From: an uncultured Gammaproteobacteria bacterium
Lineage (GTDB): Bacteria > Patescibacteriota > Microgenomatia > JAMCZE01
DNA length: 64,000 nt
Direction of reading: 5' to 3'
NCBI GenBank assembly: GCA_964576435.1
Contig: CAZNUP010000001.1
Location: 162,345 to 226,344 of the forward strand
A program made the position numbers and the translations under genes. Below the pieces are notes generated by a model that was not told where the DNA came from, made no database searches, and worked only from the letters and a program-made list of their open reading frames with translations. How positions within the stretch are numbered: the stretch's first letter is position 1; every line of letters begins with the position of its first letter. Positions 2,922 through 43,736 of this stretch are shown here, in pieces.

Positions 2922-2963
2922 GAATAAAAGAAGTATTAAAAGAATAATTATAAAAATGATAGA

Positions 2964-4664
2964 ATGAAGACGATAAGTCCTAAACTACAAATGAATAGAT
3001 ACCTTACATACGCACGAAAATCCAGTGAGACCGAAGATAGACAGATTGCATCTATTCCAGATCAACTTAAAGAAATTCACTTATTAAGAACTCGCTTAGG
3101 TATACCTGAACCAGTCTCGTTTTCTGAGTCAAGGAGTGCAAAAATCCCTGGCAGAAGCGAGTTTAATAAGATGGTTGACCTTATTGAAAGAGGCGGAATA
3201 AAGGGTGTCTTATGCTGGAATCTATCAAGGCTTGCTCGTAACGGCAAAGATGGCGGCGTCATTATTTGGGCTGTTAACGAACTTGGATTAGAAATTGTCA
3301 CCCCTTCAAAAACATTTACCAAAGAAGATATTTTCCTCATGTATATCGAGTTTGGTATGGCTAACCAATTCATAAATGACTTATCGAAAAATGTAAAAAG
3401 AGGATTAAAGTCAAAGGCGGAAAAAGGGTGGTTGCCGAGTGGTGCAAAAGCAGGTTATGCGAATGATAAATATGCAGAAAAAGGAAATAAAACAATATTG
3501 CCCGACCCAGACAGATTTCCACTTATTCGTAAAGCTTGGGATATGATGTTAACTGGGATTTATAGTCCACTACAAGTTCTTAGAACTTTAAACGACGATT
3601 GGGGCTATCGCACTCCAAAACACAAAAGGATTGGCGGGAAGCCGATGTCAAGAAGTCATATTTACAAAATGTTTACCGACGCTTTTTACTACGGGGAATT
3701 TGAATATCAAGGTAACTGGTATATGGGCAAACATAAACCAATGATTTCAAAAGATGAGTTTGATAGAGTTCAAGCTTATTTAGGCAATAAAGGACGTCCA
3801 AGGCCAAGAACACATGAGTTTGCATTCACTGGATTATTCAAATGTGGTGAATGTGGTGCGATGATAACGGCAGAAGAAAAGTTTCAAATAATATGTTCTC
3901 ACTGTAAATGTAAGTTTGCATCATTAAATAAAGTTAGATGTCCCCGTTGTCAAACCTTGATAACGGATATGAATAATCCTACTCGACTTCACTACACCTA
4001 CTACCATTGCACAAAACGAAAGAAAAAGTCTTGTACTCAACGAGCTATCAGAATCGAATCGTTAGAACAGCAACTCGATTCATTATTAGAAAATATTCAA
4101 ATTTCAGAAGGTTTTAAAGATTGGGCTATTAAGCATCTGAGTGAAGTAGCAGAAATTGAAACCGAAGATAGAGATTCAATCATTCAGTCCCAACAAAAAG
4201 CGTACGACGATTGTGTGAAACGAATAGATAATTTAGTTAAACTGAAAATATCATCACAAAATTCTAATAATGAATTACTTTCAGATGAAGAATTTAAAAA
4301 TCAAAAAGAATCCCTGCTCGCTGAAAAGTCTAAGTTAATGGAGAAACTTCAAGATACGGACGGACGAATAGATAAATGGCTAGAGCTAACAGAAAAGACT
4401 TTTAACTTTGCTTGTTACGCCCGTCGTTGGTTTACGGAAGGAAACATTGCAACTAAGAAACAAATATTATTAGGAATCGGTTCGAACTTTACTTTAAAAG
4501 ACGGAGTTGTGGGTGTAGACCTGGAAAAACCATTACAGTTTATAGAATTTGCCAAAAACAAAGTTGTGGAGATTTCACCAACGTTCGAACCTGAAAAAGA
4601 GGGCTATAAATCAAGCCAAATGGACTCTTTTTACTCTAAAAATCTAACTTTGCTCCTCCGCTAG
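2964..4664 (+). CDS. large serine recombinase (integrase)
   Basis: 566 aa. The N-terminal resolvase catalytic domain carries YARKSS...R...Q, followed by a recombinase domain and a Cys-rich zinc ribbon (CGECG...CSHCKC...CPRC). The stop codon at 4662-4664 overlaps the 3' end of tRNA-Asn. Confidence 0.85.
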   Translation: MKTISPKLQMNRYLTYARKSSETEDRQIASIPDQLKEIHLLRTRLGIPEPVSFSESRSAKIPGRSEFNKMVDLIERGGIKGVLCWNLSRLARNGKDGGVIIWAVNELGLEIVTPSKTFTKEDIFLMYIEFGMANQFINDLSKNVKRGLKSKAEKGWLPSGAKAGYANDKYAEKGNKTILPDPDRFPLIRKAWDMMLTGIYSPLQVLRTLNDDWGYRTPKHKRIGGKPMSRSHIYKMFTDAFYYGEFEYQGNWYMGKHKPMISKDEFDRVQAYLGNKGRPRPRTHEFAFTGLFKCGECGAMITAEEKFQIICSHCKCKFASLNKVRCPRCQTLITDMNNPTRLHYTYYHCTKRKKKSCTQRAIRIESLEQQLDSLLENIQISEGFKDWAIKHLSEVAEIETEDRDSIIQSQQKAYDDCVKRIDNLVKLKISSQNSNNELLSDEEFKNQKESLLAEKSKLMEKLQDTDGRIDKWLELTEKTFNFACYARRWFTEGNIATKKQILLGIGSNFTLKDGVVGVDLEKPLQFIEFAKNKVVEISPTFEPEKEGYKSSQMDSFYSKNLTLLLR

Positions 4665-4921
4665 GACTCGAACCTAGGACATCTTCGTTACAAGAACCCT
4701 TAAATTACTCTAAGGCTTGGACTATCTCATCTCCGATGTGACATCGGAGTCGGGTATATAGTCTCTACACATTTAGTCCGACACAAGGTCGGACACTTAG
4801 CTCGGGATTGTCCTGCTTGTGGCGGGAGTTCCCCGAATTAGCCCGATTTTCACTCATGCATTGCTGCAAGAGGCTGCCAAACTTAGACAGCGAAGCGCTC
4901 TACCAACTGAGCTACAGAGGA
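4653..4921 (-). tRNA. tRNA-Asn(GUU) interrupted by a group I intron in the anticodon loop (exons 4887..4921 and 4653..4690)
   Basis: The exons, read on the minus strand, give TCCTCTGTAGCTCAGTTGGTAGAGCGCTTCGCTGT | TAACGAAGATGTCCTAGGTTCGAGTCCTAGCGGAGGAG. This is a clean cloverleaf: 7-bp acceptor with one G-U pair, D-arm GCTC/GAGC, anticodon stem CTTCG/CGAAG, loop CUGUUAA, T-arm CTAGG-TTCGAGT-CCTAG, discriminator G. It is nearly identical to the E. coli tRNA-Asn framework. No CCA is encoded. Confidence 0.8.
4691..4886 (-). ncRNA. group I intron (~196 nt) between anticodon positions 35 and 36 of tRNA-Asn
   Basis: The 5' exon ends in U and the intron ends in G. The conserved R-like element GTAGAGACTATA and S-like element GAGATAGTCC are present, as are a P/Q-like pair (AAATCGGGC ... 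AATCCCGAGC). There is no ORF inside. Confidence 0.7.
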
Positions 4922-4974
4922 ATATTAACTTGTCAGATGGAATTTTAGCACCTCAGTAAGCTTTAATCTACCTA

Positions 4975-5409
4975 CTATTTATTTTGGGAGTTCTTTTGAA
5001 GTTTCCAAAAAATGACCATCGCCACTGTTATTACCAAAAATGCAATCATGGACAAGAAGGGAATGGTGACGAAACCGAAATATTCAACAAATTTTGTGGT
5101 GCACGACACGCCGTTTATGCACGGTGCCGCGGCTTCTGGAATTATGTTGTAGTAAAGCAGGTTGTGATAAATCCCGATTAAAAGTCCAATTACAGAAAGC
5201 GGCAAGACATATAAAGGAAGATCTTTGTTTTTTCGCAGAATCCCGACGGAAAGAATTACAACCAAAGGATACATGGCAATTCGCTGGTACCAACACAGCA
5301 CACACGGAGGGTATTTCAAAATTTCACTGAAGAATAAACTCCCGAGCATTGCTATCCAGGCAACCAAGAGTGCAAAATACGCCAAATATTTTTGTTTGCT
5401 ATTAAACAT
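4975..5409 (-). CDS. disulfide bond formation protein B / BdbC-like thiol-disulfide oxidoreductase
   Basis: 144 aa with 4 TM helices. A PCVLCWYQR CxxC motif sits in the first periplasmic loop and a second Cys pair (PCINGVSC) in the second loop. Confidence 0.6.
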   Translation of the reverse strand: MFNSKQKYLAYFALLVAWIAMLGSLFFSEILKYPPCVLCWYQRIAMYPLVVILSVGILRKNKDLPLYVLPLSVIGLLIGIYHNLLYYNIIPEAAAPCINGVSCTTKFVEYFGFVTIPFLSMIAFLVITVAMVIFWKLQKNSQNK

Positions 5410-32137: not shown

Positions 32138-32252
32138 CTATAGGACAGATAATAAGAATTCAATTGAAAACTTATGGTCTAACTTAGCTATCTTGAAAGT
32201 ATGGTGGGGACTTTCTGTAGCGCTTTATTATTATATAGTTCCGAAATTACGG

Positions 32253-32337
32253 CGGAGGAGGCGAGATTCGAACTCGCGACATCTTGCGACGTGGCGGTTT
32301 AGTAAACCGCTGCACTAGACCACTATGCGACTCCTCC
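32253..32337 (-). tRNA. type II (Ser-like) tRNA with apparent anticodon ACU
   Basis: GGAGGAGTCGCATAGTGGTCTAGTGCAGCGGTTTACTAAACCGCCACGTCGCAAGATGTCGCGAGTTCGAATCTCGCCTCCTCCG. The anticodon stem is GCGGT/ACCGC with loop TTACTAA. The acceptor and T-arm are identical to tRNA-Ser(GGA) at 11245. Confidence 0.55.
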
Positions 32338-33925: not shown

Positions 33926-34363
33926 GTGAGAATTGAAAATCGTCAAGCTCGATATGACTATGAGATTCTTGAAAAATTCGAAGCCGGCATAAATCTTTTA
34001 GGTCCGGAGGTTAAATCTATCAGGGAAAACGAAATTTCCTTAAATGAATCCTTTGTCCACATGCGGGACGGTCAAGCATATCTTGTTAATGCTCACATCC
34101 ACCCTTACCAAAATTCGGCTCTTTCAATTAGTCCAACAAGAACAAGAAAACTTCTCCTACACAAAAAAGAATTAACTCATTTAAATTCAAAAATCGCCGC
34201 CACTGGTTTGACCCTAATTCCACTAGTGCTGTATAATAAAGGTAACATTTTTAAGCTCGAAGTCGCTTTGGCGAAGGGCAAGAAAAAATGGGATAAGCGC
34301 GAAGCGATCAAAAAACAAACCATGAATAGGGAAGTAGAAATCGCTTTACGAGATAAATCTTAA
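33926..34363 (+). CDS. smpB: SsrA-binding protein SmpB
   Basis: NRQARYDYEILEKFEAGINLLGPEVKSIR...AHIHPY...RTRKLLLHKKEL is the canonical SmpB sequence, and ssrA follows directly. Confidence 0.9.
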   Translation: MRIENRQARYDYEILEKFEAGINLLGPEVKSIRENEISLNESFVHMRDGQAYLVNAHIHPYQNSALSISPTRTRKLLLHKKELTHLNSKIAATGLTLIPLVLYNKGNIFKLEVALAKGKKKWDKREAIKKQTMNREVEIALRDKS

Positions 34364-34368
34364 TTCCT

Positions 34369-34789
34369 GGGGATGTACGAATCGCTGGGAGAGCACTTTG
34401 AAAACTGCAAGCCGAAGATGATAGCTAGAATTCGTTAAAAACGCTATCAAAAACTTAAGTGCTGGAACACAATCCACACTGACTGCGTATCTGGAGAAAC
34501 TCCAGAAGAAAGCCGAATTGGCTTTCAACGCTAACTTCAAGGCGCAAGCCCAAGTTTTAGCTTACGCGTAAAGTCTGTTTCATAAATCCTCTCTCAGTGG
34601 GATTTTTGAGGCATTATTCAGCTGAGATGCTAACTTAAGGGTTTGGTTTTCCTTTGAGAATATAGACCAGTAACCACGCTATATTTGTCTTGTTAATTCG
34701 ATCGGGTATAGCAAGAATTAGAATTAACTACGCTTGTAGATGTTTAAGGGTCGTTCTAACCATACGGGGCTTCACCGCCCCCATCTCCA
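34369..34789 (+). ncRNA. ssrA: tmRNA (ssrA), ~421 nt, proposed tag peptide ANFKAQAQVLAYA
   Basis: It starts GGGGATG 6 nt after the smpB stop. An internal tag ORF GCT AAC TTC AAG GCG CAA GCC CAA GTT TTA GCT TAC GCG TAA lies at 34530-34571. The 3' tRNA-like end has T-arm GGGGC-TTCACC-GCCCC (34766-34781) and acceptor strand CATCTCC (34782-34788) pairing with the 5' GGGGATG, with discriminator A. No CCA is encoded. Confidence 0.65.
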
Positions 34790-36305
34790 CATGAGGGATT
34801 TTTCTTGGAGAAAGATCGCGCATTAGCTCGATCGGACGGGACAAAGTCGCTGTTCCAAAACCATTTTCTTTGTCGAACGTCAACTTGTCTTCGAAATACA
34901 TCAAAACAATAGCTCTCTTATTTTGCCAATTAGGGTTTTTCCACATATCAACAGGGTTTTCCAATGTTTGGAAAACCAAACTCGAGGCAGTTCCAAATTC
35001 TTTGTCAGAGTAGTGGCGATCTAGTCCTTGTTGCTCTTCAAGCTCTTTCTTTTGGGAAAGTTTACCCTTTAGCTCGTTCTCATAAACTCCAATAAGCTCT
35101 TCGTCTTTTGACTTGATTATTCGAGCCTTCAAAGAAGTGATTTCCGATTCAATGTCATAAATCAATGACTGATCAAGATCCCTTTTTGCCTCAAAGGAGG
35201 TTCTGTGTTGCGCCCAGACGTCTCCTAATACTGCCAACACTAGATCAGTTACTCCTTTGGCTGGCTTGGCACCTTCCATTAAGTCGAGAAGTTGATCATG
35301 CATTTTGTCTCTATGGAGAGTTTTCCAACGCATTGGGCAGCCCAGCTTCTTACAATCATATTTAGGATACTTCTGCTTGCCGTTTCTCCCAGTGCTCCAG
35401 CTCCCTGTTACAGGCCCATTGCAGAGGGAACAGCGCACAAGCCCTCTCAAGGGAAAATCATTACTGTAATCTTTGCGAACCTTAATGATCGGCTTTTTAG
35501 CAAATTTGTTAAGAACTATTGGGTAAAGACTTGGATCAACCAGGCCGTCGTGTTGGCCTTTCCCTAAAGGAATTCCCCAGGGATCATATTCAATCATGCC
35601 AAAATAAAGCGGGTTTTTAAGAATGCCCTGTATTCCATGATGAGAGATATTACTTTTGGCCCCTAGTTTGTAAAGCTCACAGTCAACAAACAGTTTAACC
35701 TCGTCCTGTGTCCGCAGCTCGCCGCTTGCAAATTTTTCAATTGCAGCCTTCCTGACTATAGCGTTGGGGCTTCCGTCTGGTTTCAGGATTTTGCCACGAA
35801 TGGGATCTTTGAAGTTCTTGAGTCCAGGAGGCATGCAGAATGGCCAAAAACCGCTCTCCAGTCGAGCTTTCATCTTTTGAATAACCTGCCTTCTATTCTT
35901 TTGTCTTTCATATTGAGAGGTTGCCGCGGCCACATTTTCGATTAATTCTCCTTCTGGACTATCCTCAAAATTAAAATTCGGACTTTCCAGCTTGGCTCCT
36001 CGCCCCACCAGCTCACTCTTTAACTGAAGATGAACTTTGACATCTCGAGCCAACCTACTCAGATCGTCAAAAATAATCACATAGTTTTCTATCTTATGGA
36101 CTTCAAGATGGGTAATTAACTTCTTCATTCCTGGCCGCTCAAAAAGCCCCCCAGAAACACCATCGTCAGGGAAAACTACCTCGACTTTGTATCCTTTTTC
36201 CCTGGCGTAGTTACGACATCTCCTTTCCTGAGATTCAAGTCCGTGGCCTTCATTGACCTGGCGATCTGAACTTACCCGACAATAAATTAAGCACTTAGTT
36301 TGCAT
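34728..36305 (-). CDS. large serine recombinase (integrase) of an ssrA-integrated island
   Basis: 525 aa. The N-terminal resolvase domain is LIYCRVSSDRQ...GLESQ...R; there is a recombinase domain, a zinc-ribbon Cys cluster (CSLCNG...CKKLGC) and a coiled-coil. The last ~20 codons overlap the 3' tRNA-like domain of ssrA. Confidence 0.85.
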   Translation of the reverse strand: MQTKCLIYCRVSSDRQVNEGHGLESQERRCRNYAREKGYKVEVVFPDDGVSGGLFERPGMKKLITHLEVHKIENYVIIFDDLSRLARDVKVHLQLKSELVGRGAKLESPNFNFEDSPEGELIENVAAATSQYERQKNRRQVIQKMKARLESGFWPFCMPPGLKNFKDPIRGKILKPDGSPNAIVRKAAIEKFASGELRTQDEVKLFVDCELYKLGAKSNISHHGIQGILKNPLYFGMIEYDPWGIPLGKGQHDGLVDPSLYPIVLNKFAKKPIIKVRKDYSNDFPLRGLVRCSLCNGPVTGSWSTGRNGKQKYPKYDCKKLGCPMRWKTLHRDKMHDQLLDLMEGAKPAKGVTDLVLAVLGDVWAQHRTSFEAKRDLDQSLIYDIESEITSLKARIIKSKDEELIGVYENELKGKLSQKKELEEQQGLDRHYSDKEFGTASSLVFQTLENPVDMWKNPNWQNKRAIVLMYFEDKLTFDKENGFGTATLSRPIELMRDLSPRKIPHVEMGAVKPRMVRTTLKHLQA

Positions 36306-36498
36306 TGTTGTCTCCTTTTGATGTTTGCCAGAAGGTTTCTATAACCTCGTTAGATAGAAGGTATAAAAAGTCGAGTATAGACTGGATATCGCTGTCTTTC
36401 ATGTTTTTGGATTTTTCCCCAAGCATCTGCCTCGCTTGGTCAACAGTCACTTTTCGATCCTGACTGCCGTTTTGCCCTGTCCATTTTCCGCTCGGCAT
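36295..36498 (-). CDS. small hypothetical protein (possible recombination directionality factor/excisionase position)
   Basis: 67-aa ORF immediately upstream of, and overlapping, the integrase start. No motif. Confidence 0.25.
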   Translation of the reverse strand: MPSGKWTGQNGSQDRKVTVDQARQMLGEKSKNMKDSDIQSILDFLYLLSNEVIETFWQTSKGDNNAN

Positions 36499-36607
36499 AA
36501 ATCCTCCTGCCTCTCAAAACCCACGGGTTGGATAATGCCGTGTTTAAGATACAGAGGATGTGCCTATGGATAGGCCAAGTCCACCTCGTCTAAGAATGTT
36601 TATTTAA

Positions 36608-36928
36608 CTAATAGAATTCGCTATTTTCTCTCAATATTTCTTCAACCAATGATTTCATGTCCTCCTTTGGCGCTATTTCCGTGTTTAGCCGCCAGTGAAG
36701 GCCTTCTTCACCTCTTCCAGATGGAATTAACAACTGTTTGCCGTCAATCTTGGTTCGGGAAAGACTTGAAATTCTGGCTCCCAGCTGTTTGTCTTTCTGA
36801 TCCAGAGCGCCTGAGATCGTGGTTGTGGTCATTATGTTGGAGTCCAACTCAAGGATGGAAGCTAAGGCCTGAAGTTTCTCCAAGGTGAACTTTCTAAGAG
36901 TGTTTTCGAGAGAGTTATTTTGGTTCAT
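36608..36928 (-). CDS. hypothetical protein
   Basis: 106-aa ORF with no recognised domain. Confidence 0.3.
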   Translation of the reverse strand: MNQNNSLENTLRKFTLEKLQALASILELDSNIMTTTTISGALDQKDKQLGARISSLSRTKIDGKQLLIPSGRGEEGLHWRLNTEIAPKEDMKSLVEEILRENSEFY

Positions 36929-37002
36929 GTAGCCAATTTACCAAAGCATACATTGCTTGTCAAGCATATGGTGAATATCGAGCATAATGACCAAATTCTT
37001 CT

Positions 37003-37221
37003 CTAAGAGGAGATGTCCAAAAGCTCGGATAACTTAATGCCTAAAGCAGTGGCTATCTGATATGCCGTTTTGATTGAAATGTTCCTCCCTTGTTCAATAT
37101 CCCAAAAGTAGGCACGGTGAAGTCCTGCCTTCTCTGCCAATTGTTCTTGAGTTAAGCCCTTCCTCTTCCTAAGAGTCTCTATCCTGTAGCCAAGCTTTGC
37201 ATAAAGATTTTTATAGTTCAT
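37003..37221 (-). CDS. XRE-family HTH transcriptional regulator (repressor-like)
   Basis: LRKRKGLTQEQLAEKAGLHRAYFWDIEQGRNISIKTAYQIATALGIKLSELL. 72 aa, divergent from the DUF4352 gene. Confidence 0.8.
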   Translation of the reverse strand: MNYKNLYAKLGYRIETLRKRKGLTQEQLAEKAGLHRAYFWDIEQGRNISIKTAYQIATALGIKLSELLDISS

Positions 37222-37352
37222 GGCAAGCCTAGACTAGCGGATTGCCAGACTTTTCTTTACCAGACATATCTTGCTTTTTTGCGCCTATTAGGGCTTATTA
37301 TTGGGACGAGAGTTAGAAATAAGAATATAGCCACAAGGAGGTGAATCATTAA

Positions 37353-37931
37353 ATGAAGAAAATATTAAAGTGGGTTGGGATTGTGTTCTTGATATTTATC
37401 GCTCTCGGAGTACTTGGTGCCATCTTTGGAGCTGGCAAGAAAGGCAATCAACAAGTAGCACCAACCAGCCAGACCTCAACTCAAACAGGTCAAGAGACTG
37501 CCCCAACTCAGAGTCCAGAACAAAAAATGGCAGGGCTTAACCAAACTGTTAAGGAAGGTGATCTAGGATTTACAGTCTTAGCAGTTAATAAGCAAAAGAC
37601 ACTCGGAGGTGCCTACACCCAGAAGACAGCTCAGGGGACATATTATGTTGTTACCTTAAAGCTCGACAACACTGGCAAGAAAACTGCCACCTTTGACAGT
37701 TCGATGGCCAAGATCACAGACGATCAAGGCAGAGAATTTGACCGCTCAATTGACGGCCAAACAGCTCTTGGCATGTCAAACGGCAAAGTGGATCTGTTCT
37801 TACAGCAAATCCAACCTGGTCTTTCCTACACTGGAGATTTAGTTTTTGATCTACCTGATCAAGTCAAAAATCCAGTTCTTGTTGTCAAAGATTCACTCTT
37901 TGGCCAGGGGGCGAAGATTAGTTTGGAATAA
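37353..37931 (+). CDS. DUF4352-like secreted/lipoprotein (phage-associated surface protein)
   Basis: Signal/TM, a low-complexity Thr/Gln linker, then GDLGFTVLAVNKQKTLGG...YYVVTLKLDNTGKKTATF...GDLVFDLP, the typical DUF4352 beta-sandwich pattern. Recalled, not searched. Confidence 0.5.
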   Translation: MKKILKWVGIVFLIFIALGVLGAIFGAGKKGNQQVAPTSQTSTQTGQETAPTQSPEQKMAGLNQTVKEGDLGFTVLAVNKQKTLGGAYTQKTAQGTYYVVTLKLDNTGKKTATFDSSMAKITDDQGREFDRSIDGQTALGMSNGKVDLFLQQIQPGLSYTGDLVFDLPDQVKNPVLVVKDSLFGQGAKISLE

Positions 37932-38014
37932 CAAAAAGAAAGCATCAACAGAAGGCTCTAACCATGAGCCTTTTGTTATGGCATAACTTGGATAAGGCGA
38001 TATAATAGGCCAAA

Positions 38015-39094
38015 ATGATAGATCAAAAATATAAGATGACGAGCACCTCGCTTTATAGCTCCAAGATTGAGGATATCGACCTTGGCGAGAGTGGAAGCGG
38101 GTTAACACGACGAGTTTTGAGAGCACAAGTTGTGGAAAACTACAAGGAAAAGGAGAATTCAGTTGAATTTGCCATAATTCATCAAAGACGCGCAAGCAGA
38201 GAAAAACCATGGGAAGATTTAGGAGGGAAAACCCTAGCCAATTTAAAAGCAGGAGAAGCTTCAAAAATGCAGCTTGACACTCAACAAACCAAGAATCTCT
38301 TTGATCATCTCCTTAATCTCTATCGAATTGGGAAAGATGGCGTGCGGATGGGCGAAACAGTTCTGGTTATAGGTGATGAGGATGAGGTTATAAGAACAGA
38401 TAAGGGAAGGGCAAGAATAATCAAGAAATTATTGGATGGAAATCACAGTGAGGAAGTATGGCAGGCTTTAGTCGATGACTATCCAGAGTTGGCTACAAAA
38501 ATGTCATTGGCGAAAATTTACAACGAAAAGAAGAAAGTTGTTGAAGAGTTCGAGGCAAATATTTCAGCTGGAAAAGACGAAAACTACTGGCAGGGTCTTT
38601 TAGAAGCAAACGGTTGGGTTTTTGGAACAAACTATGAAAAGCGGATTGGTGAAAGGCGAGTCAACATTGGCTCTACAGTTGATCATCCACTTGTAACCGA
38701 AGATGGTTGTCTGGAAATAATTGAGATTAAGCGTCCCGATACGGTTTTTTGGAAAACAGACACAGCAGGAGAACTTTATAAGTATAGGGGGAAATATTTA
38801 GTGCCCTCAACCGAATTATCTGGGACAATTAGCCAGGCAACTGGTTATATTCTTGATCTGGAAAAACAAGTTGATGTTACTTCCTGGGCTGCCGATCATG
38901 AAGGTGTAGTTCCTCTCAAACCCCGTTGTGTTGTTATTTTAGGGCGTTCAAATAATTGGGCGCAAGAAGAAATGAATCAATTCAGATTACTAAACGATAG
39001 CCTCCATGGGGTAACTATTCAAACTTTTGATCATCTCCTCCTTCGGGCTAAAAAGGCTCTAGAAATGTTTAAACCTCAAAATACGAATGAATAA
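38015..39094 (+). CDS. candidate Shedu-like defence nuclease (DUF4263-type, PD-(D/E)xK fold)
   Basis: 359 aa. The C-terminal region has VDHPLVTEDGCLEIIEIKRP (a D...E.K nuclease-like core) and the tail PRCVVILGRSNNW...RLLNDSLHGVTIQTFDHLL, resembling the DUF4263 C-terminal signature of SduA proteins. It is a solitary gene inside an integrative island. Confidence 0.45.
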   Translation: MIDQKYKMTSTSLYSSKIEDIDLGESGSGLTRRVLRAQVVENYKEKENSVEFAIIHQRRASREKPWEDLGGKTLANLKAGEASKMQLDTQQTKNLFDHLLNLYRIGKDGVRMGETVLVIGDEDEVIRTDKGRARIIKKLLDGNHSEEVWQALVDDYPELATKMSLAKIYNEKKKVVEEFEANISAGKDENYWQGLLEANGWVFGTNYEKRIGERRVNIGSTVDHPLVTEDGCLEIIEIKRPDTVFWKTDTAGELYKYRGKYLVPSTELSGTISQATGYILDLEKQVDVTSWAADHEGVVPLKPRCVVILGRSNNWAQEEMNQFRLLNDSLHGVTIQTFDHLLLRAKKALEMFKPQNTNE

Positions 39095-39191
39095 TCTTTG
39101 CCGACTTTTAGACAAAATTTTCTCCCCGAAAGCTGCCTTCTGTGATGCAAAGCCACTTTGAGATGTAGAACCTGGAACCAGGGGTCAGCAA

Positions 39192-39207
39192 CTCTCTAAT
39201 TAGAGAG
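39192..39207. repeat. perfect 16-bp palindrome CTCTCTAATTAGAGAG, copy 1
   Basis: Copy 1, with extended context AACTCTCTAATTAGAGAGGAAAGTT. The identical core recurs at 40360, where the flanking 25-nt context matches at about 23 of 25 positions. Confidence 0.8.
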
Positions 39208-39383
39208 GAAAGTTTTCAAGACGAAGCGCTTAAACGACCACTACCTATGGTTTTTGTATTGTTTTTGTGTGTTCTTTGTTTGTTCTGAAGGTGAATACTT
39301 TTATTGTCCTTACAAGACAATTCTAAATTTAGACAAAAGCATGAATCCAACCCAAAAGTGATATAATATGATCTAATTAAATT

Positions 39384-39761
39384 ATGGCAGAGGATCTTGA
39401 AAAGACACAGCCAAAATTGATAGAGCTCATTAAACCAGACATGCACGAGGAGGAGCTCAAAGGTCTGGTAACTCAATTTATTTCTCCTGAGGAGGAAGAA
39501 ATTTTGGGTGGTAAAGAGGAAGCAATTCAAAGAATAACTGACGCAACAGCATATGTAGGCGTGTTTGCGCCAGTGCCAGCTACTTTTGATCTTGCCGCCT
39601 TCAGTGCAGTTAACGCTAGAGGTCTGACTGAAGAACAGACAAATAAGGTGTTAGAGATATGCAAGCGAATGGGTGTGATAGAGGATGTGGAAGGAAGACC
39701 TGGAAGAATGGCAGTTTCCAGAGAAATGGTCGAGATAGCAAAAAACCAGTTTTTAACTTAA
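39384..39761 (+). CDS. hypothetical acidic protein
   Basis: 125-aa ORF, higher GC than its surroundings, co-oriented with the MOSC gene. Confidence 0.35.
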   Translation: MAEDLEKTQPKLIELIKPDMHEEELKGLVTQFISPEEEEILGGKEEAIQRITDATAYVGVFAPVPATFDLAAFSAVNARGLTEEQTNKVLEICKRMGVIEDVEGRPGRMAVSREMVEIAKNQFLT

Positions 39762-39774
39762 AAATTAGCTGACT

Positions 39775-40371
39775 ATGGCGAACAGATCTGAAGTAATTGC
39801 AATCTTTATTTGCCCCGACAAAGGGGAGCCAATGCAGGAATTTGACAGTGTTAGGGCAATCGCAGGCAGGGGGCTTGAAGGGGACAGATATGCCGAGGGC
39901 AAAGGCGCCTACTCCAAATCAAAGCGGGTTACTACTCGACACGCTTCGTTAATAGCCATTGAAGCGATAGACGCAGCGAATTATGAGAACGGAACTGACT
40001 TTTTGCCTTCAGACACCAGGAGAAACATTGTTACCTCTGGAATTGATCTTAATAGCCTAGTTGGTCAAGAGTTCACTGTTGGCGAAGTGAGTATGAAAGG
40101 GGTTGAGCTCTGTGATCCTTGCGCCCGCCCTTCCGCACTTTCTGGAAAGAAAGGGTTCGAGCCCGCATTTCAAAATCGTGGCGGCCTAAGAGCCGAAGTT
40201 CTCACTGATGGTCTAATCAGGAAAGGAGACACATTCAGTGTTCAAATTGGCCCCCGCCATGTTCCCCAGCAACAAAAAGACGGAACTAATCTGATGGTTC
40301 CAGACCACACTGGTTCTGTGGCTGACCATGTAGCAGCAATTCGAGAACAAATGGCGAAACTCTCTAATTAG
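39775..40371 (+). CDS. MOSC domain-containing protein (YiiM/YcbX-like)
   Basis: RGLEGDRYAEGKG...RHASLIAIEA...VGEVSMKGVELCDPCARP carries the MOSC beta-barrel signature with the conserved Cys. The local GC is visibly higher than in neighbouring genes. Confidence 0.6.
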   Translation: MANRSEVIAIFICPDKGEPMQEFDSVRAIAGRGLEGDRYAEGKGAYSKSKRVTTRHASLIAIEAIDAANYENGTDFLPSDTRRNIVTSGIDLNSLVGQEFTVGEVSMKGVELCDPCARPSALSGKKGFEPAFQNRGGLRAEVLTDGLIRKGDTFSVQIGPRHVPQQQKDGTNLMVPDHTGSVADHVAAIREQMAKLSN

Positions 40372-40375
40372 AGAG
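40360..40375. repeat. perfect 16-bp palindrome CTCTCTAATTAGAGAG, copy 2 (overlaps the MOSC stop codon)
   Basis: Context GAAACTCTCTAATTAGAGAGGGAATTT. Confidence 0.8.
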
Positions 40376-40442
40376 GGAATTTAGCCCCTGTGTGCCGAAC
40401 TGTTGTGATGATTTTTGGTTTTTGTTATGATAACTATCAGAT

Positions 40443-40904
40443 ATGTCTGAATCGGCCGAAACTCCTAGTATTGTTGAGATCGGAAAGGGTCAATTTGATC
40501 GGCTAGCTTCAGTTTTGGGACAGCGAGAAGGAAGCAAATACAATTTAGTCGGCTGGGGTGGTTCTACAGCTGATTTGAGGACTTCGGTAGAAGGTAAAGC
40601 ACTTTATCCATCTTCAGCTTTTGCCGTTGTTGCGGAGGGGATTTCTAGGTACAAACGTGGAGAAGAGAGAATGTATGACGACACGGATTCCATGCGTGAG
40701 CTCTCACAAGCTTTGGCAGATGGGTCAGAAGTTTACGGGCAGGCAAAAGAATTAGATGAAACCACACTGAAATCTCAAATAAAGGAATATCTCCAATCTC
40801 ATGGCGGCGTTTATGATGAAAATATTAACTGGCAAGATTTTATTGCAGAGAGAGCAACAAGAATAAAAAATCGGGCCGATCAGATAGATGAAGTTAACAG
40901 ATAA
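40443..40904 (+). CDS. hypothetical protein
   Basis: 153-aa ORF with no recognised motif. Confidence 0.35.
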   Translation: MSESAETPSIVEIGKGQFDRLASVLGQREGSKYNLVGWGGSTADLRTSVEGKALYPSSAFAVVAEGISRYKRGEERMYDDTDSMRELSQALADGSEVYGQAKELDETTLKSQIKEYLQSHGGVYDENINWQDFIAERATRIKNRADQIDEVNR

Positions 40905-41046
40905 TACTTCCTTAATTTAAGTTTCCCTTAAACAAGAGACTTTCTATGTTCCCACCCAAAGCCTCCCAACGTCGTACCAGTTGTCCCAATTTCTAGTGCC
41001 ACGGCCTTCTACAGACGACTAAGTGCGGAGTGTATAGCTAGGTTAG

Positions 41047-41075
41047 GGGGGATGGGCTTTTAAGGCCCATCCCCC
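41047..41075. other. GC-rich 11-bp perfect hairpin GGGGGATGGGC-TTTTAAG-GCCCATCCCCC in a ~420-bp non-coding gap
   Basis: A strong stem in an otherwise AT-rich intergenic region. It contains CATCCCCC, the exact complement of the ssrA 5' end GGGGATG. Confidence 0.5.
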
Positions 41076-41322
41076 ACTCATTCCTGAATAGCTACGTTTA
41101 CTATGGAAGGATGTGATAAAGAAGCGGGGGAAAGAGTTAGATTTTGGCTTGTTGTTAAGCCCTGTTTAATATCTGTTAAAATTGAGCTCCATTTCCAGAT
41201 ATAGGATTCGATCTGGTTCCAACTTTTTTCCCACGTGTCCACAGATAAAGACCAATTAATAAACGTATTCCATACAAATGCGGTTTATTGTAGGCGTAAG
41301 GGTGAGCTGATTACTTGAAAGC

Positions 41323-41676
41323 TTAGTTGTTTCTAGAGTTTTTACCAGGCGAGTTTGAAGGTGGGGTAAATTTTATTTCACGACCTGGAGGGATTTTTAC
41401 AATTCCCAATTTTAGTATTGCGCTTACAACTTCTGGATTGGGTCGAATGTCGTCTTTATTTAAGGTGACTTCTTTATCTTCTCCTGCGTCTAGTATGATA
41501 TTTCCATTAGGGCCAATAGCCTTAACTTTATAGAAGATTCCATTTCGACCCGTGACGGTATCACCAAGCTCATATCCTTCAGTGGGTTGTTCAATTTTAT
41601 CAAATTCACCAGTCCCTAAGAAACCATTCCAACGGATCTCCCAATCGTTCTGTTCCCCTTTTTTCTCTTCTGCCAT
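41323..41676 (-). CDS. hypothetical protein
   Basis: 117-aa ORF with no motif. Confidence 0.3.
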   Translation of the reverse strand: MAEEKKGEQNDWEIRWNGFLGTGEFDKIEQPTEGYELGDTVTGRNGIFYKVKAIGPNGNIILDAGEDKEVTLNKDDIRPNPEVVSAILKLGIVKIPPGREIKFTPPSNSPGKNSRNN

Positions 41677-41822
41677 GCAAAAATTATAATATAACGTAAT
41701 CTCTTTTCAACGACGAATAAATTTAAGTATATTTTCGTTTGACAGATTTATAAAAATATCAAACCATTGGAAAATATATTGTTCTAATCGGTTCCATTGA
41801 ATCTCCTGGAGGTCCACCAAGG

Positions 41823-43736
41823 TTATTTCATATTAATCCCATAAACCTTAGATCCAGAAACTAAGAATATTTTCTTTTCCTCTTCATCCGCAAGGATGAT
41901 CGCTTTCTCCGCATTCTTTATTGTTGGTAACTGATATTGTGCTTGATAAAGTCCTTCCTTATTTACAACCACCACTCTATTATTCATGGCATCCCAAATA
42001 TAAATGTTCTTTTCCTCATCTGAAGAGTACATACTATTAAATGATCCAATTGGAGAAGGAAGGCTTTTAAGTTCCAATTGCTCCGGAGCTCCCGAAGCAA
42101 ATTTCCAAACCGCATTTGGTTCAAACACATAGATAAACCCATCAATTTCCATCCCATTAGCTTCCAATAAATCTAAATTCGTCCCAGGTTGAATGTATGG
42201 AACTGGCTCTCCAAATCCGCCTTCCTCAGTTCCTTGATATTTCCATACCTGACTATTTCCAGGATCGAGAAGGTATAAATTCCCCCCAAAACTAGACATC
42301 GCGGTTATTTCTCCAGAAGAACTGGCATCTTTTGCAATGGTTTTAAAACCTCCACTCGTTGTCAAATCTTTTTTCTTGATTCCAGAAGAGTCGTGAACGT
42401 ATAAATTGTCACTATAAAAATCTACCAAGGAGTTAGATTTAAAGTTTCCACCAGCAACAATAGTTCCAGATTTGTTACTGGTTCCAAGAGAGTAAACACT
42501 GCCATTCTTGCCATCCAGTGCCATGATTGTTCCATCATGCAATTTTGCAGATGTAATGTTTGGGTTGGGTTTTAAAAGTGAGAAGTCATAAAAAGTAGTT
42601 AGGGGAACGCTATTTATATTTCCAGCCCTAGCAATTTCCTGGTCATATTTAGCTACAATTGCCCGAAGTTGATCACCTTCTTTAGATTTAAGATTTTTCC
42701 AATCACTTCCAAAATCTCTTTCGATTTCAGAAACAATCTCCTTTTTCTTATCAACAAGTGATTGTCTGGCAAGTTGATCATTGAGTCCAATTAGTTTTCC
42801 TGAGGCTTCTAAGCTTTCGTTAGCTTCTGCTTGGATTCTTGCCACGTTTTGTGTTTGCACCTCTAAAGATCTTGACCTTAGTTGAAAGGCAATTACAGAC
42901 AAAAGCGTTACGAACGCAATTAGAACTAGGTATAAGGTTTTCTTTGGAGGCGCGCTTTCAAATCCTTTCTCCCGAGCCTGTTTGAGATACATTATATTTT
43001 CTTTTGTCGGTACAAGCTTTGTGAGTCCACTAAATATTCCAGATACCTTAGAAATTTTTCCCCAGTTTGGCGGCGTAGTTGGGAGCGGTTCTTCAACTGA
43101 AGTTGCCTCTTCTTCGATTTTTGTTCCACTTTCCTCCGACTTTTGAGGCATATCATTTTGTTCAATTGATGCTTTAGGGACTTCAGTTTCAACCACTTGG
43201 TCAAATTTCAAAACTAATCCACAGATGTCGGGACTCTCATGTTCTCCTTCAAGGTTGGGAAGTAGTGCATCTCTTATTTCGGTCGGATTTTTGTTACTTT
43301 GATTGGTAAGTTCTGAAAAATTAATCTTTGACATTAGTTTCTCTGTGCCAAGAACTATGACATCATCTTGAGAAAGTGTTCCTGACAAAGTTGGAGCTGT
43401 TAAATTAATAATCTTTCCTTTTCTGATAAGCTTGGTACCACAGCTTCCAAGTGTAGCTAGAGATAAGTTGTTTTCGACAATATTAGCAACCACTAATGAC
43501 AAACTTATGTCACTTCCCAGCTGTTCTCTGATAGAAATTGCTAATTCTTTAGGTGAAACTTGTGGATTTTGGGAAATCGCTTCCTCAATCTTTGTAACAC
43601 TATCTCTTCCAATTTCTAGGTTAACCCTTTCCTTGTCTCCCAATAAAAGAAGCACAATAAAAAAGTTACCAGAGACAATTGTTTGCGCATAAACTCCTTC
43701 GCCAGAACTTCCAGCGATTGCGGCGTGTGACAACAT
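41823..43736 (-). CDS. hypothetical bitopic membrane protein with C-terminal extracytoplasmic beta-rich domain
   Basis: 637 aa. The N-terminal ~150 aa look like the tail of a PP2C/SpoIIE-type fold (weak). A TM helix LYLVLIAFVTLLSVIAF is followed by a long Ser/Gly/Asn-rich C-terminal domain. Confidence 0.3.
   Translation of the reverse strand: MLSHAAIAGSSGEGVYAQTIVSGNFFIVLLLLGDKERVNLEIGRDSVTKIEEAISQNPQVSPKELAISIREQLGSDISLSLVVANIVENNLSLATLGSCGTKLIRKGKIINLTAPTLSGTLSQDDVIVLGTEKLMSKINFSELTNQSNKNPTEIRDALLPNLEGEHESPDICGLVLKFDQVVETEVPKASIEQNDMPQKSEESGTKIEEEATSVEEPLPTTPPNWGKISKVSGIFSGLTKLVPTKENIMYLKQAREKGFESAPPKKTLYLVLIAFVTLLSVIAFQLRSRSLEVQTQNVARIQAEANESLEASGKLIGLNDQLARQSLVDKKKEIVSEIERDFGSDWKNLKSKEGDQLRAIVAKYDQEIARAGNINSVPLTTFYDFSLLKPNPNITSAKLHDGTIMALDGKNGSVYSLGTSNKSGTIVAGGNFKSNSLVDFYSDNLYVHDSSGIKKKDLTTSGGFKTIAKDASSSGEITAMSSFGGNLYLLDPGNSQVWKYQGTEEGGFGEPVPYIQPGTNLDLLEANGMEIDGFIYVFEPNAVWKFASGAPEQLELKSLPSPIGSFNSMYSSDEEKNIYIWDAMNNRVVVVNKEGLYQAQYQLPTIKNAEKAIILADEEEKKIFLVSGSKVYGINMK

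Follow-up and report, generated by a model that had tools for sequence, protein, structure and literature searches.

Introduction

Islands inserted at ssrA, the gene for transfer-messenger RNA (tmRNA), have been described in Dehalococcoides, where they encode DsiB, a serine recombinase of ~540 aa located on the reverse strand, by the left attachment site (attL) at ssrA (McMurdie et al. 2011, PMC3146451). The 3' end of DsiB always overlaps ssrA or its repeat by ~70 bp, with the stop codon lying outside the island, and the authors guessed that only the circular element might carry the complete gene; the same islands carry an embedded tRNA-like gene (PMC3146451). A change of the integrase 3' end upon integration is also reported for the Myxococcus phage Mx8 (intP/intX), in which the phage attachment site (attP) lies inside the integrase open reading frame (ORF), and integration gives the gene a new 3' end and alters the behaviour of the integrase (Tojo 1996; Magrini 1999; reviewed in PMC6070905). 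As for serine recombinases, the Islander paper stated that they were not known to target tRNA genes (PMC4383910). Here we present a locus related to these themes, found in a 64,000-nt stretch of contig CAZNUP010000001.1 (the window, whose coordinates are used throughout). The window very probably contains a 7,027-bp integrative element of Patescibacteria (candidate phyla radiation, CPR), placed in the final bases of ssrA by the large serine recombinase that it encodes.

The tmRNA gene and the recombinase gene overlapping it

The locus comprises the following features.

33926-34363, plus strand: smpB (PF01668 SmpB, E 2.6e-52)
34369-34792, plus strand: ssrA, the tmRNA gene (Rfam RF00023, 73.5 bits, E 1e-26)
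34530-34571, plus strand: plausible tmRNA tag reading frame, ANFKAQAQVLAYA followed by a stop
34728-36305, minus strand: large serine recombinase in its chimeric form, 525 aa (PF00239, E 2.8e-26; YCRVSSDRQ motif)

The Rfam match to ssrA exceeds the gathering score of 47 and spans the full model (model positions 1-374), and the gene starts 6 nt past the last base of smpB. Its 5' GGGGATG pairs with the 3' CATCTCC, including a G3-U pair as in tRNA-Ala, and the T-arm (GGGGC/TTCACC/GCCCC) has a 5-bp stem and a 6-nt loop. The tag ends in VLAYA, similarly to the tags of relatives, which end in YAYA, FAYA or AAYA, and this makes the frame plausible. Thus, the tmRNA features proposed by the first-pass annotation (position after smpB, tag frame, T-arm and acceptor) were confirmed by Rfam and by direct reading. 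The same holds for the 525-aa minus-strand serine recombinase said to overlap the ssrA 3' end: the covariance model places the end of the tmRNA at 34792, beyond 34728, and the overlap of 65 nt stands.

ARAGORN, run on the window, called no tmRNA at the ssrA locus. Among the scanned relatives with an Rfam or profile tmRNA match, it detected a tmRNA in only one (L071); since nearly all relatives are missed too, we attribute the blank to a limitation of the detector and not to a defect of the gene. The tmRNAs missed by ARAGORN include Patescibacteria tmRNAs with 7-nt T-loops.

The encoded 3' end of ssrA reads ...TCCACAT in the window, i.e. ACAT instead of ACCA. This end and the 6-nt T-loop had been read as possible deviations due to the reconstitution of the gene. 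Both occur in the related loci L003-L011, none of which has an adjoining intact recombinase gene. Indeed, these loci have the same T-arm with a 5-bp stem and a 6-nt loop (loop variants in the clade are TTCACC, CTCACC and GTCAC...; window positions 34765-34780), and their encoded ssrA ends are ACAT, ACCT, ACCC, ACAC, ACTA, ACAA or ACCA. The two oddities are thus traits of the lineage rather than integration damage. Moreover, as several island-free relatives have no encoded CCA, in this lineage CCA must be added enzymatically. The window tmRNA is also long (424 nt): relative to the Rfam model it has an insertion of ~50 nt at 34477-34529, just upstream of the tag codons, holding two small hairpins, TCTGGAGAAACTCCAGA and AAGCCGAATTGGCTT.

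The recombinase has <=25% sequence identity to any cultured-phage integrase. Its residues S12 (within the YCRVSSDRQ motif), R10 and Q16 are invariant in the homologue alignment. The overlap with ssrA corresponds to 21 codons plus the stop, and an open stretch of 21 codons has a chance probability of ~0.36: the length of the overlap alone is not beyond chance.

The island and its junctions

The limits of the element were obtained from synteny, junctions and guanine-cytosine (GC) content.

34786-34790: attL core, TCCAC (last 3 nt of the acceptor stem, discriminator A and C74)
34791-41817: integrated element, 7,027 bp including one core copy
41813-41817: core of the right attachment site (attR), TCCAC, followed by CA, with which it makes up the original encoded ...TCCACCA end of ssrA
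41823-43736, minus strand: host gene, 637 aa, which would originally have abutted the ssrA 3' end, as its homologues do in L004, L006 and L009

In the species-representative genomes, the relatives of SmpB come from Patescibacteria metagenome-assembled genomes, and ssrA directly follows smpB in 12/12 relatives examined. A homologue of the gene at 41823-43736 converges on ssrA in L004, L006 and L009 and stops 1-5 nt from its 3' end; the identity is 35-40% in the stretches that match, and the match is full-length in L004 and L009. In the window, this gene sits 7 kb farther from ssrA, which argues for an island inserted in ssrA. GC content is 0.43-0.44 at 35-41 kb, against ~0.38 in the flanks.

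The attL junction reads ...GCCCCCATC-TCCAC-ATGAGGG... and the attR junction ...CTGGAGG-TCCAC-CAAGGTTATTTCAT.... The only identity between the two is TCCAC (5 bp), which places the crossover inside it and indicates that the T-arm and acceptor strand are host DNA. When the left and right flanks are joined to rebuild the empty site (attB), ssrA ends ...CATCTCCACCA, three bases short of the stop codon of the neighbouring gene, and this end (...CATCTCCACCAAGGTTATTTCA) mirrors that of L004 (...CATCTCCACCAGTTATTTCA). The predicted attP junction of the element is GAATCTCCTGGAGGTCCACATGAGGGATTTTTC and the predicted empty attB is CCCCCATCTCCACCAAGGTTATTTCAT. The comparison with relatives thus located the crossover within TCCAC and showed the empty-site arrangement in L004, L006 and L009.

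Judging from these junctions, ssrA appears to be host-derived up to the TCCAC core, and the island to give at most the bases after 34790 (AT...). Integration in the window turned the encoded ACCA into ACAT and left ssrA otherwise intact; many other elements have a Leu codon (TTG or CTG) ahead of the core, and CCA is thereby retained. Of the earlier proposal of an island in ssrA that supplies the restored ssrA 3' end, the insertion is borne out by synteny with L004, L006 and L009, but the supply of the 3' end is not, only TCCAC being shared. Coherently, a second copy of the ssrA 3' portion, suggested as a direct repeat to be found downstream, was searched for throughout the window and none was present, the only hits being 9-12-mers of chance length. 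The classical model of a tDNA fragment plus displaced repeat was dropped on this account.

Residues 1-505 of the recombinase are encoded by the element, and residues 506-525 (EMGAVKPRMVRTTLKHLQA) are the antisense of the T-arm and helix region of the host ssrA. It is therefore the host ssrA that supplies the last 19 codons of the integrated recombinase ORF, in the direction opposite to that first proposed. In the integrated state, the body of the gene reads on antisense through the tmRNA acceptor strand, the T-arm and the helix next to it, and the 525-aa chimera ends where a stop happens to occur.

The detached native 3' end and the circular forms

The other part of the recombinase gene lies at the far end of the island.

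41707-41817, minus strand: detached native 3' end of the recombinase gene, VDLQEIQWNRLEQYIFQWFDIFINLSNENILKFIRR followed by a stop, in frame with the core

The attP core falls inside the recombinase ORF, at codons 505-506, 36 codons ahead of the natural stop. When the island ends are rejoined (attP), the fragment joins codon 504 and gives a protein of 541 aa with a different 36-aa tail, VDLQEIQWNRLEQYIFQWF…; the 541-aa form ends ...HVDLQEIQWNRLEQYIFQWFDIFINLSNENILKFIRR and the 525-aa form ...HVEMGAVKPRMVRTTLKHLQA, each followed by a stop. Integration therefore splits the gene at the attP core, leaving the body at attL and the native 36-codon end at attR, where it is promoterless and 7 kb from the body; circularisation would restore the 541-aa protein, with a tail predicted to form a helix beyond a disordered linker.

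The rebuilt C-terminus (VD..WN.L..YIF.WF) matches those of three database homologues, P0014, P0037 and P0093, which end VD(I/T)....(S)WNQI..YI(F/W)KW(F/Y) and are homologous to it. The contigs encoding them (L083-L085) are 7.5, 4.3 and 4.2 kb long, with terminal overlaps of 26, 127 and 55 nt, and have GTGGAC at the core. The Rfam and profile scan found no tmRNA-like sequence on these circular-looking contigs, and they diverge from ssrA immediately past GTGGA, i.e. the core read on the recombinase strand. Among the elements, the mean pairwise identity is 0.45 for the tail and 0.49 for the body, which suggests that the detached tail is under the same constraint as the enzyme.

Genes with a native tail could also derive from tandem arrays instead of free circles, so that the recombinase would be completed only by a neighbouring second element. 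This option was raised by McMurdie et al. for DsiB (PMC3146451), assemblers collapse tandem repeats into circles, and tandem elements or their remnants do exist, as in locus L095, which has tail fragments 778 bp apart. However, the three contigs are independent, come from three assemblers, and each closes on itself with k-mer-sized overlaps and carries neither host genes nor tmRNA. In addition, an array would need the same architecture, with attP inside the gene. We consider this origin improbable.

Antisense and native tails across the family

The homologue set consisted of the 120 best matches, with 43-64% identity for the full-length ones, many of them labelled Patescibacteria where named. 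An ssrA-antisense tail, i.e. VEM or VET followed by G-x-EP-like strings, was present in 107/120 of these closest homologues, and many end in (H/L)LQA and a stop. These tails are the translated reverse complement of CATCTCCAC (acceptor), of GGTTCGA-type T-arms and of the conserved tmRNA sequence CTACGCTTGTAG. They stop anywhere from 11 to >70 codons past the junction, and their sequence follows the tmRNA of each host, which argues against selection on the overlap at the protein level. In the database, ~90% of the closest homologues (P0002-P0120) show a C-terminal motif of the 'VEMPGIEPGSE...HLQA' type. This motif is best read as an artefact of antisense tmRNA reading across attL, a reading that also implies that gene callers never report the true C-terminus of integrated copies.

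These tails bear on the alternative held by the first-pass annotation, in which a copy of the ssrA 3' end travels with the island, within the coding region of its recombinase, and is passed on to the host upon integration, with the 65-nt overlap constrained both as RNA and as protein. Although the VEM-G-x-EP motif looks conserved among homologues, as this alternative would have it, it tracks the tmRNA of each host and ends at arbitrary stops. Besides, the window has no displaced ssrA fragment and attL and attR share 5 bp only, the circular forms lack a tmRNA match and depart from ssrA right past GTGGA, and the tail at attR is a different and conserved one. Donation by the island, and with it the dual constraint, is hardly tenable.

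The metagenome survey covered 80 loci encoding relatives of the recombinase. A clade-specific tmRNA profile found a tmRNA antisense over the recombinase 3' end in 34/80 loci, and Rfam added 8. Besides the window, 17 loci have an open native-tail fragment upstream, at the far end of an island of 3-9.5 kb. The junctions could be mapped in 12 of these 17, and there the fragment comes directly after the second GTGGA; in the 11 of the 17 for which fragments were tabulated, each one is open, with a length of 30-47 aa. Within the family, attL and attR share GTGGA only, or GTGGAGAT(G) in three elements, and the GTGGA core is the same in 13 other integrated loci and in the 3 circular forms.

More distant relatives end antisense in tRNA genes, identified by ARAGORN: tRNA-Ala (the most frequent, 7 loci), Ile, Leu, Glu, Arg, Tyr and Thr. 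These relatives, with 36-42% identity, fall within L122-L165 (L122, L135, L137, L139, L142, L144, L148, L151, L152, L155, L158, L161 and L163-L165). The tail sequences of three IMG/VR prophage contigs (L166-L168, 32-33% identity) suggest tRNA-antisense ends as well. tRNA-Ala and tmRNA have ...CTCCACCA in common. To look for native tails in the tRNA-targeting relatives, their upstream ORF fragments were compared all against all. The small upstream ORF, which is conserved, was all that emerged; there was no clear tail family, and the far junctions of these relatives were not found.

Three further observations concern remnants and neighbours of ssrA. At L005 6797-6898, a 34-aa remnant of a recombinase C-terminus (NGFGSPGLSYSIQLIQRVSELGFRDVEM...) is fused to the ssrA 3' end; by its sequence it is the scar of a decayed element, and the ssrA of L005 also ends in ACAT. 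In L095, the two native-tail fragments lie at 5399 and 6177, upstream of one recombinase, an arrangement that points to successive integrations at ssrA or to a tandem element that has decayed there. Lastly, L053 (8543-9496, minus strand; FCPU426) and L017 (7412-8401, plus strand; Bacilli), both from unrelated phyla, encode a distant serine recombinase (22% identity) 1-3 kb from smpB.

Predicted structure of the recombinase and symmetry of the crossover site

An AlphaFold2 model was made for the homologue P0037, which is 47% identical to the window protein (mean predicted local distance difference test, pLDDT, 91). From the N-terminus, the model shows a catalytic domain, a recombinase domain, a zinc ribbon, a long coiled coil (347-423) and an extra C-terminal domain (430-496). 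Then comes a disordered linker (499-508, pLDDT <50), which holds the V-D core codons, followed by a tail helix of 30 residues (509-538, pLDDT 73-86). In the Foldseek search, the whole chain of P0037 aligned to the integrases of SPbeta, Bxb1 and phiC31 with E from 1e-15 to 1e-16. With the resolvase domain found in the window protein itself and the remaining domains coming through the P0037 model, the window recombinase is, as modelled, a large serine recombinase.

Over 15 attP sites, dyad symmetry is best around GT|GG|AC, with a weak signal. This tentatively places the crossover at the CC (GG) that ends the acceptor stem.

Other genes on the element

Beyond the recombinase gene and its detached end, the element encodes the following.

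36295-36498, minus strand: 67-aa ORF overlapping the recombinase start; tblastn places homologues directly 5' to the recombinase in at least 14 loci of the family
36608-36928, minus strand: 106-aa ORF, no Pfam, PHROG or PADLOC family match
37003-37221, minus strand: Cro/C1-type helix-turn-helix (HTH) regulator (PF01381, E 1e-13; PADLOC 'control protein', E 5e-18)
37353-37931, plus strand: DUF4352 protein, cargo (PF11611, E 1e-23; phrog_806; weak Sie-like phrog match)
38015-39094, plus strand: Shedu defence nuclease SduA, cargo (PF21407 and PF14082, the DUF4263 nuclease domain; PADLOC SduA, E 1e-48)
39384-41676: further cargo ORFs of 125 aa (plus strand), 198 aa with a MOSC domain (plus), 153 aa (plus) and 117 aa (minus)

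The 67-aa ORF gave no Pfam, PHROG or PADLOC match; the loci with its homologues are L084, L089, L092, L097-L101, L104-L106, L110, L127 and L128. Homologues of the Cro/C1-type regulator are present on other elements of the family. Among the ORFs at 39384-41676, only MOSC was recognised (PF03473, E 4e-10). The Pfam, PHROGs and PADLOC searches found no replication or phage genes on the island or on the circles. Given the Shedu cargo, we infer that the element is a small mobile defence island.

Two of the circular-looking elements carry noteworthy genes of their own. The 7.5-kb L083 has, at 2924-4672 by the recombinase, a Trypsin_2 protease and a TIR_2 protein, plus a LexA-like regulator; by domain content, the protease and the TIR_2 protein are defence-like cargo, as Shedu is in the window. 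The 4.2-kb L085 has its own 90-nt tRNA gene (3916-4005, plus strand; Rfam tRNA, 57.7 bits).

Possible meaning of the split gene

Since conservation of the detached tail is on a par with that of the remainder of the protein, the circular element presumably requires it, be it for integration itself or for the control of that reaction. The chimeric form, perhaps with the 67-aa protein, would then carry out excision or fail to do so, and the recombinase gene would both signal whether it is integrated and react to this, as in the IntP/IntX system of phage Mx8. Fusion of the phiC31 integrase at its C-terminus to a directionality factor is presented in PMC5737554 as an established route to drive excision, and this precedent makes the recombinase C-terminus a plausible control point.

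A bolder possibility, which we put forward tentatively and with more doubt than conviction, is that the split is a built-in state sensor, and that the family and its tRNA-targeting relatives form an unrecognised class of serine integrases using the near-universal ...CUCCACCA end of tmRNA and tRNA-Ala. The tail helix, present only in the circular form, would license or bias attP x attB integration. With the antisense tail in place, or through the mere loss of the helix, the enzyme would turn either competent for excision or silent. The 67-aa upstream protein might contribute, or the pairing of the integrated-form mRNA, antisense, with the abundant tmRNA. If so, directionality would be set by the topology of the gene itself and not only by a separate directionality factor.

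On the other hand, the element could be a fixed fossil, integrated as described but immobile, with the chimeric recombinase being a disabled gene of no regulatory meaning. In keeping with this, the element was found in two samples, each time in its integrated form only, and decay does occur in the family, as seen from the 34-aa remnant by ssrA in L005 and the extra orphan tail fragment in L095. Nevertheless, the recombinase ORF, the catalytic motif, both cores, the 36-codon tail fragment and the small upstream ORF are all intact in the window, and elsewhere every one of the 11 tabulated tail fragments is open (30-47 aa). We thus regard a fossil as unlikely, though not negligible.

A mobile element that splits its own recombinase gene is the interpretation we prefer, and some points weigh against it. 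A look-up of the exact recombinase protein returned 2 contigs, both integrated, and no excised or empty-site form. The crossover was placed to 5 bp by comparing sequences only, and not by experiment. The contigs of P0014, P0037 and P0093 look circular, and tandem arrays could also yield such assemblies. In the window recombinase, the zinc ribbon (PF13408) is weak, at 24.6 bits just under the cut-off of 25.3, and the tail helix was predicted from an alignment with only three native-tail sequences. The 67-aa ORF is a candidate directionality factor or accessory protein by inference, and the functional reading of the tail swap is a hypothesis, the function of the tail being deduced.

If the preferred interpretation is right, it has several implications. 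The common view that serine integrases do not use tRNA or tmRNA genes (PMC4383910) would be corrected, as hundreds of detectable relatives, mainly from uncultured Patescibacteria, do use such genes. With both states of a self-cut integrase gene documented, the speculation made for DsiB becomes a directly testable hypothesis on the sensing of the integration state. The antisense-tmRNA C-termini of ~90% of the closest homologues can mislead domain models and integrase prospecting. An integrase having the conserved tmRNA end as attB could become a broad-host landing-pad tool. Lastly, bacteria whose genomes are very small would receive defence genes (Shedu; TIR plus protease) from one another by way of elements of 4-7.5 kb.

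Other observations in the window

A group I intron lies inside a tRNA gene at 4640-4925 on the minus strand (Rfam RF00028, 64.7 bits, 4698-4896). It is flanked by the tRNA-like halves TCCTCTGTAGCTCAGTTGGTAGAGCGCTTCG... and ...CGAAGATGTCCTAGGTTCGAGTCCTAGCGGAGGA, and ARAGORN did not call this tRNA. At 32251-32337, also on the minus strand, there is a tRNA-Ser with anticodon ACT (A34), adjoining a tRNA-Ser(GCT); the tRNA-Ser(ACT) recurs in two other Patescibacteria loci, L095 (3160-3247) and L137 (204-291). To our knowledge, bacteria normally have A34 only in tRNA-Arg(ACG), and if this rule holds, the tRNA-Ser(ACT) would be unusual.

Comparison with known systems

We searched the literature for Patescibacteria with a serine recombinase at a tmRNA or tRNA gene, and no specific report emerged. 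The tyrosine-integrase islands treated by Islander and TIGER (Williams 2002, 2003) resemble the window element in that ssrA is a target, the integrase lies by the intact tDNA and the target stays functional. They differ in carrying a tDNA fragment and a displaced repeat, whereas the junctions of the window family are almost repeat-free.

With phiC31, Bxb1, SPbeta, A118/LI and TP901-1, the window family has in common the domain order and fold, and a short att identity, which may likewise surround a central dinucleotide, but sequence identity to these integrases is <=25%. In the characterised phage serine integrases attP is outside the int ORF, the targets are usually protein-coding genes and the directionality factor is a separate protein. 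We know of no description of the extra C-terminal domain, the linker or the tail helix for them.

The Dehalococcoides islands are similar in that the window recombinase is by attL, with its 3' end running into ssrA (65-nt overlap); moreover, L085 carries a tRNA gene as those islands carry a tRNA-like one. There are also differences. The Dehalococcoides islands come with a direct repeat of 20 bp from ssrA and are inferred to have inserted in the T-loop, whereas here 5 bp at the acceptor end are shared. They carry a six-gene module (with DsiA small recombinase, RecF-like, ParB, Mom and the embedded tRNA), none of which was recognised on the window island. Furthermore, the native C-terminus is recovered here and conserved. 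The likeness to DsiB is one of gene arrangement.

In Mx8, the target is a tRNA gene. The window element resembles this phage in having the attP core within the integrase ORF and two forms of the protein, the 525-aa one and the rebuilt 541-aa one, with L083-L085 as the free forms. Mx8 Int is, however, a tyrosine recombinase of a 50-kb phage, whereas here a large serine recombinase is carried by an element of 4-7.5 kb with no phage genes. On the whole, the window element is a variant of a known but rarely recognised kind, whose precedents are DsiB and Mx8.

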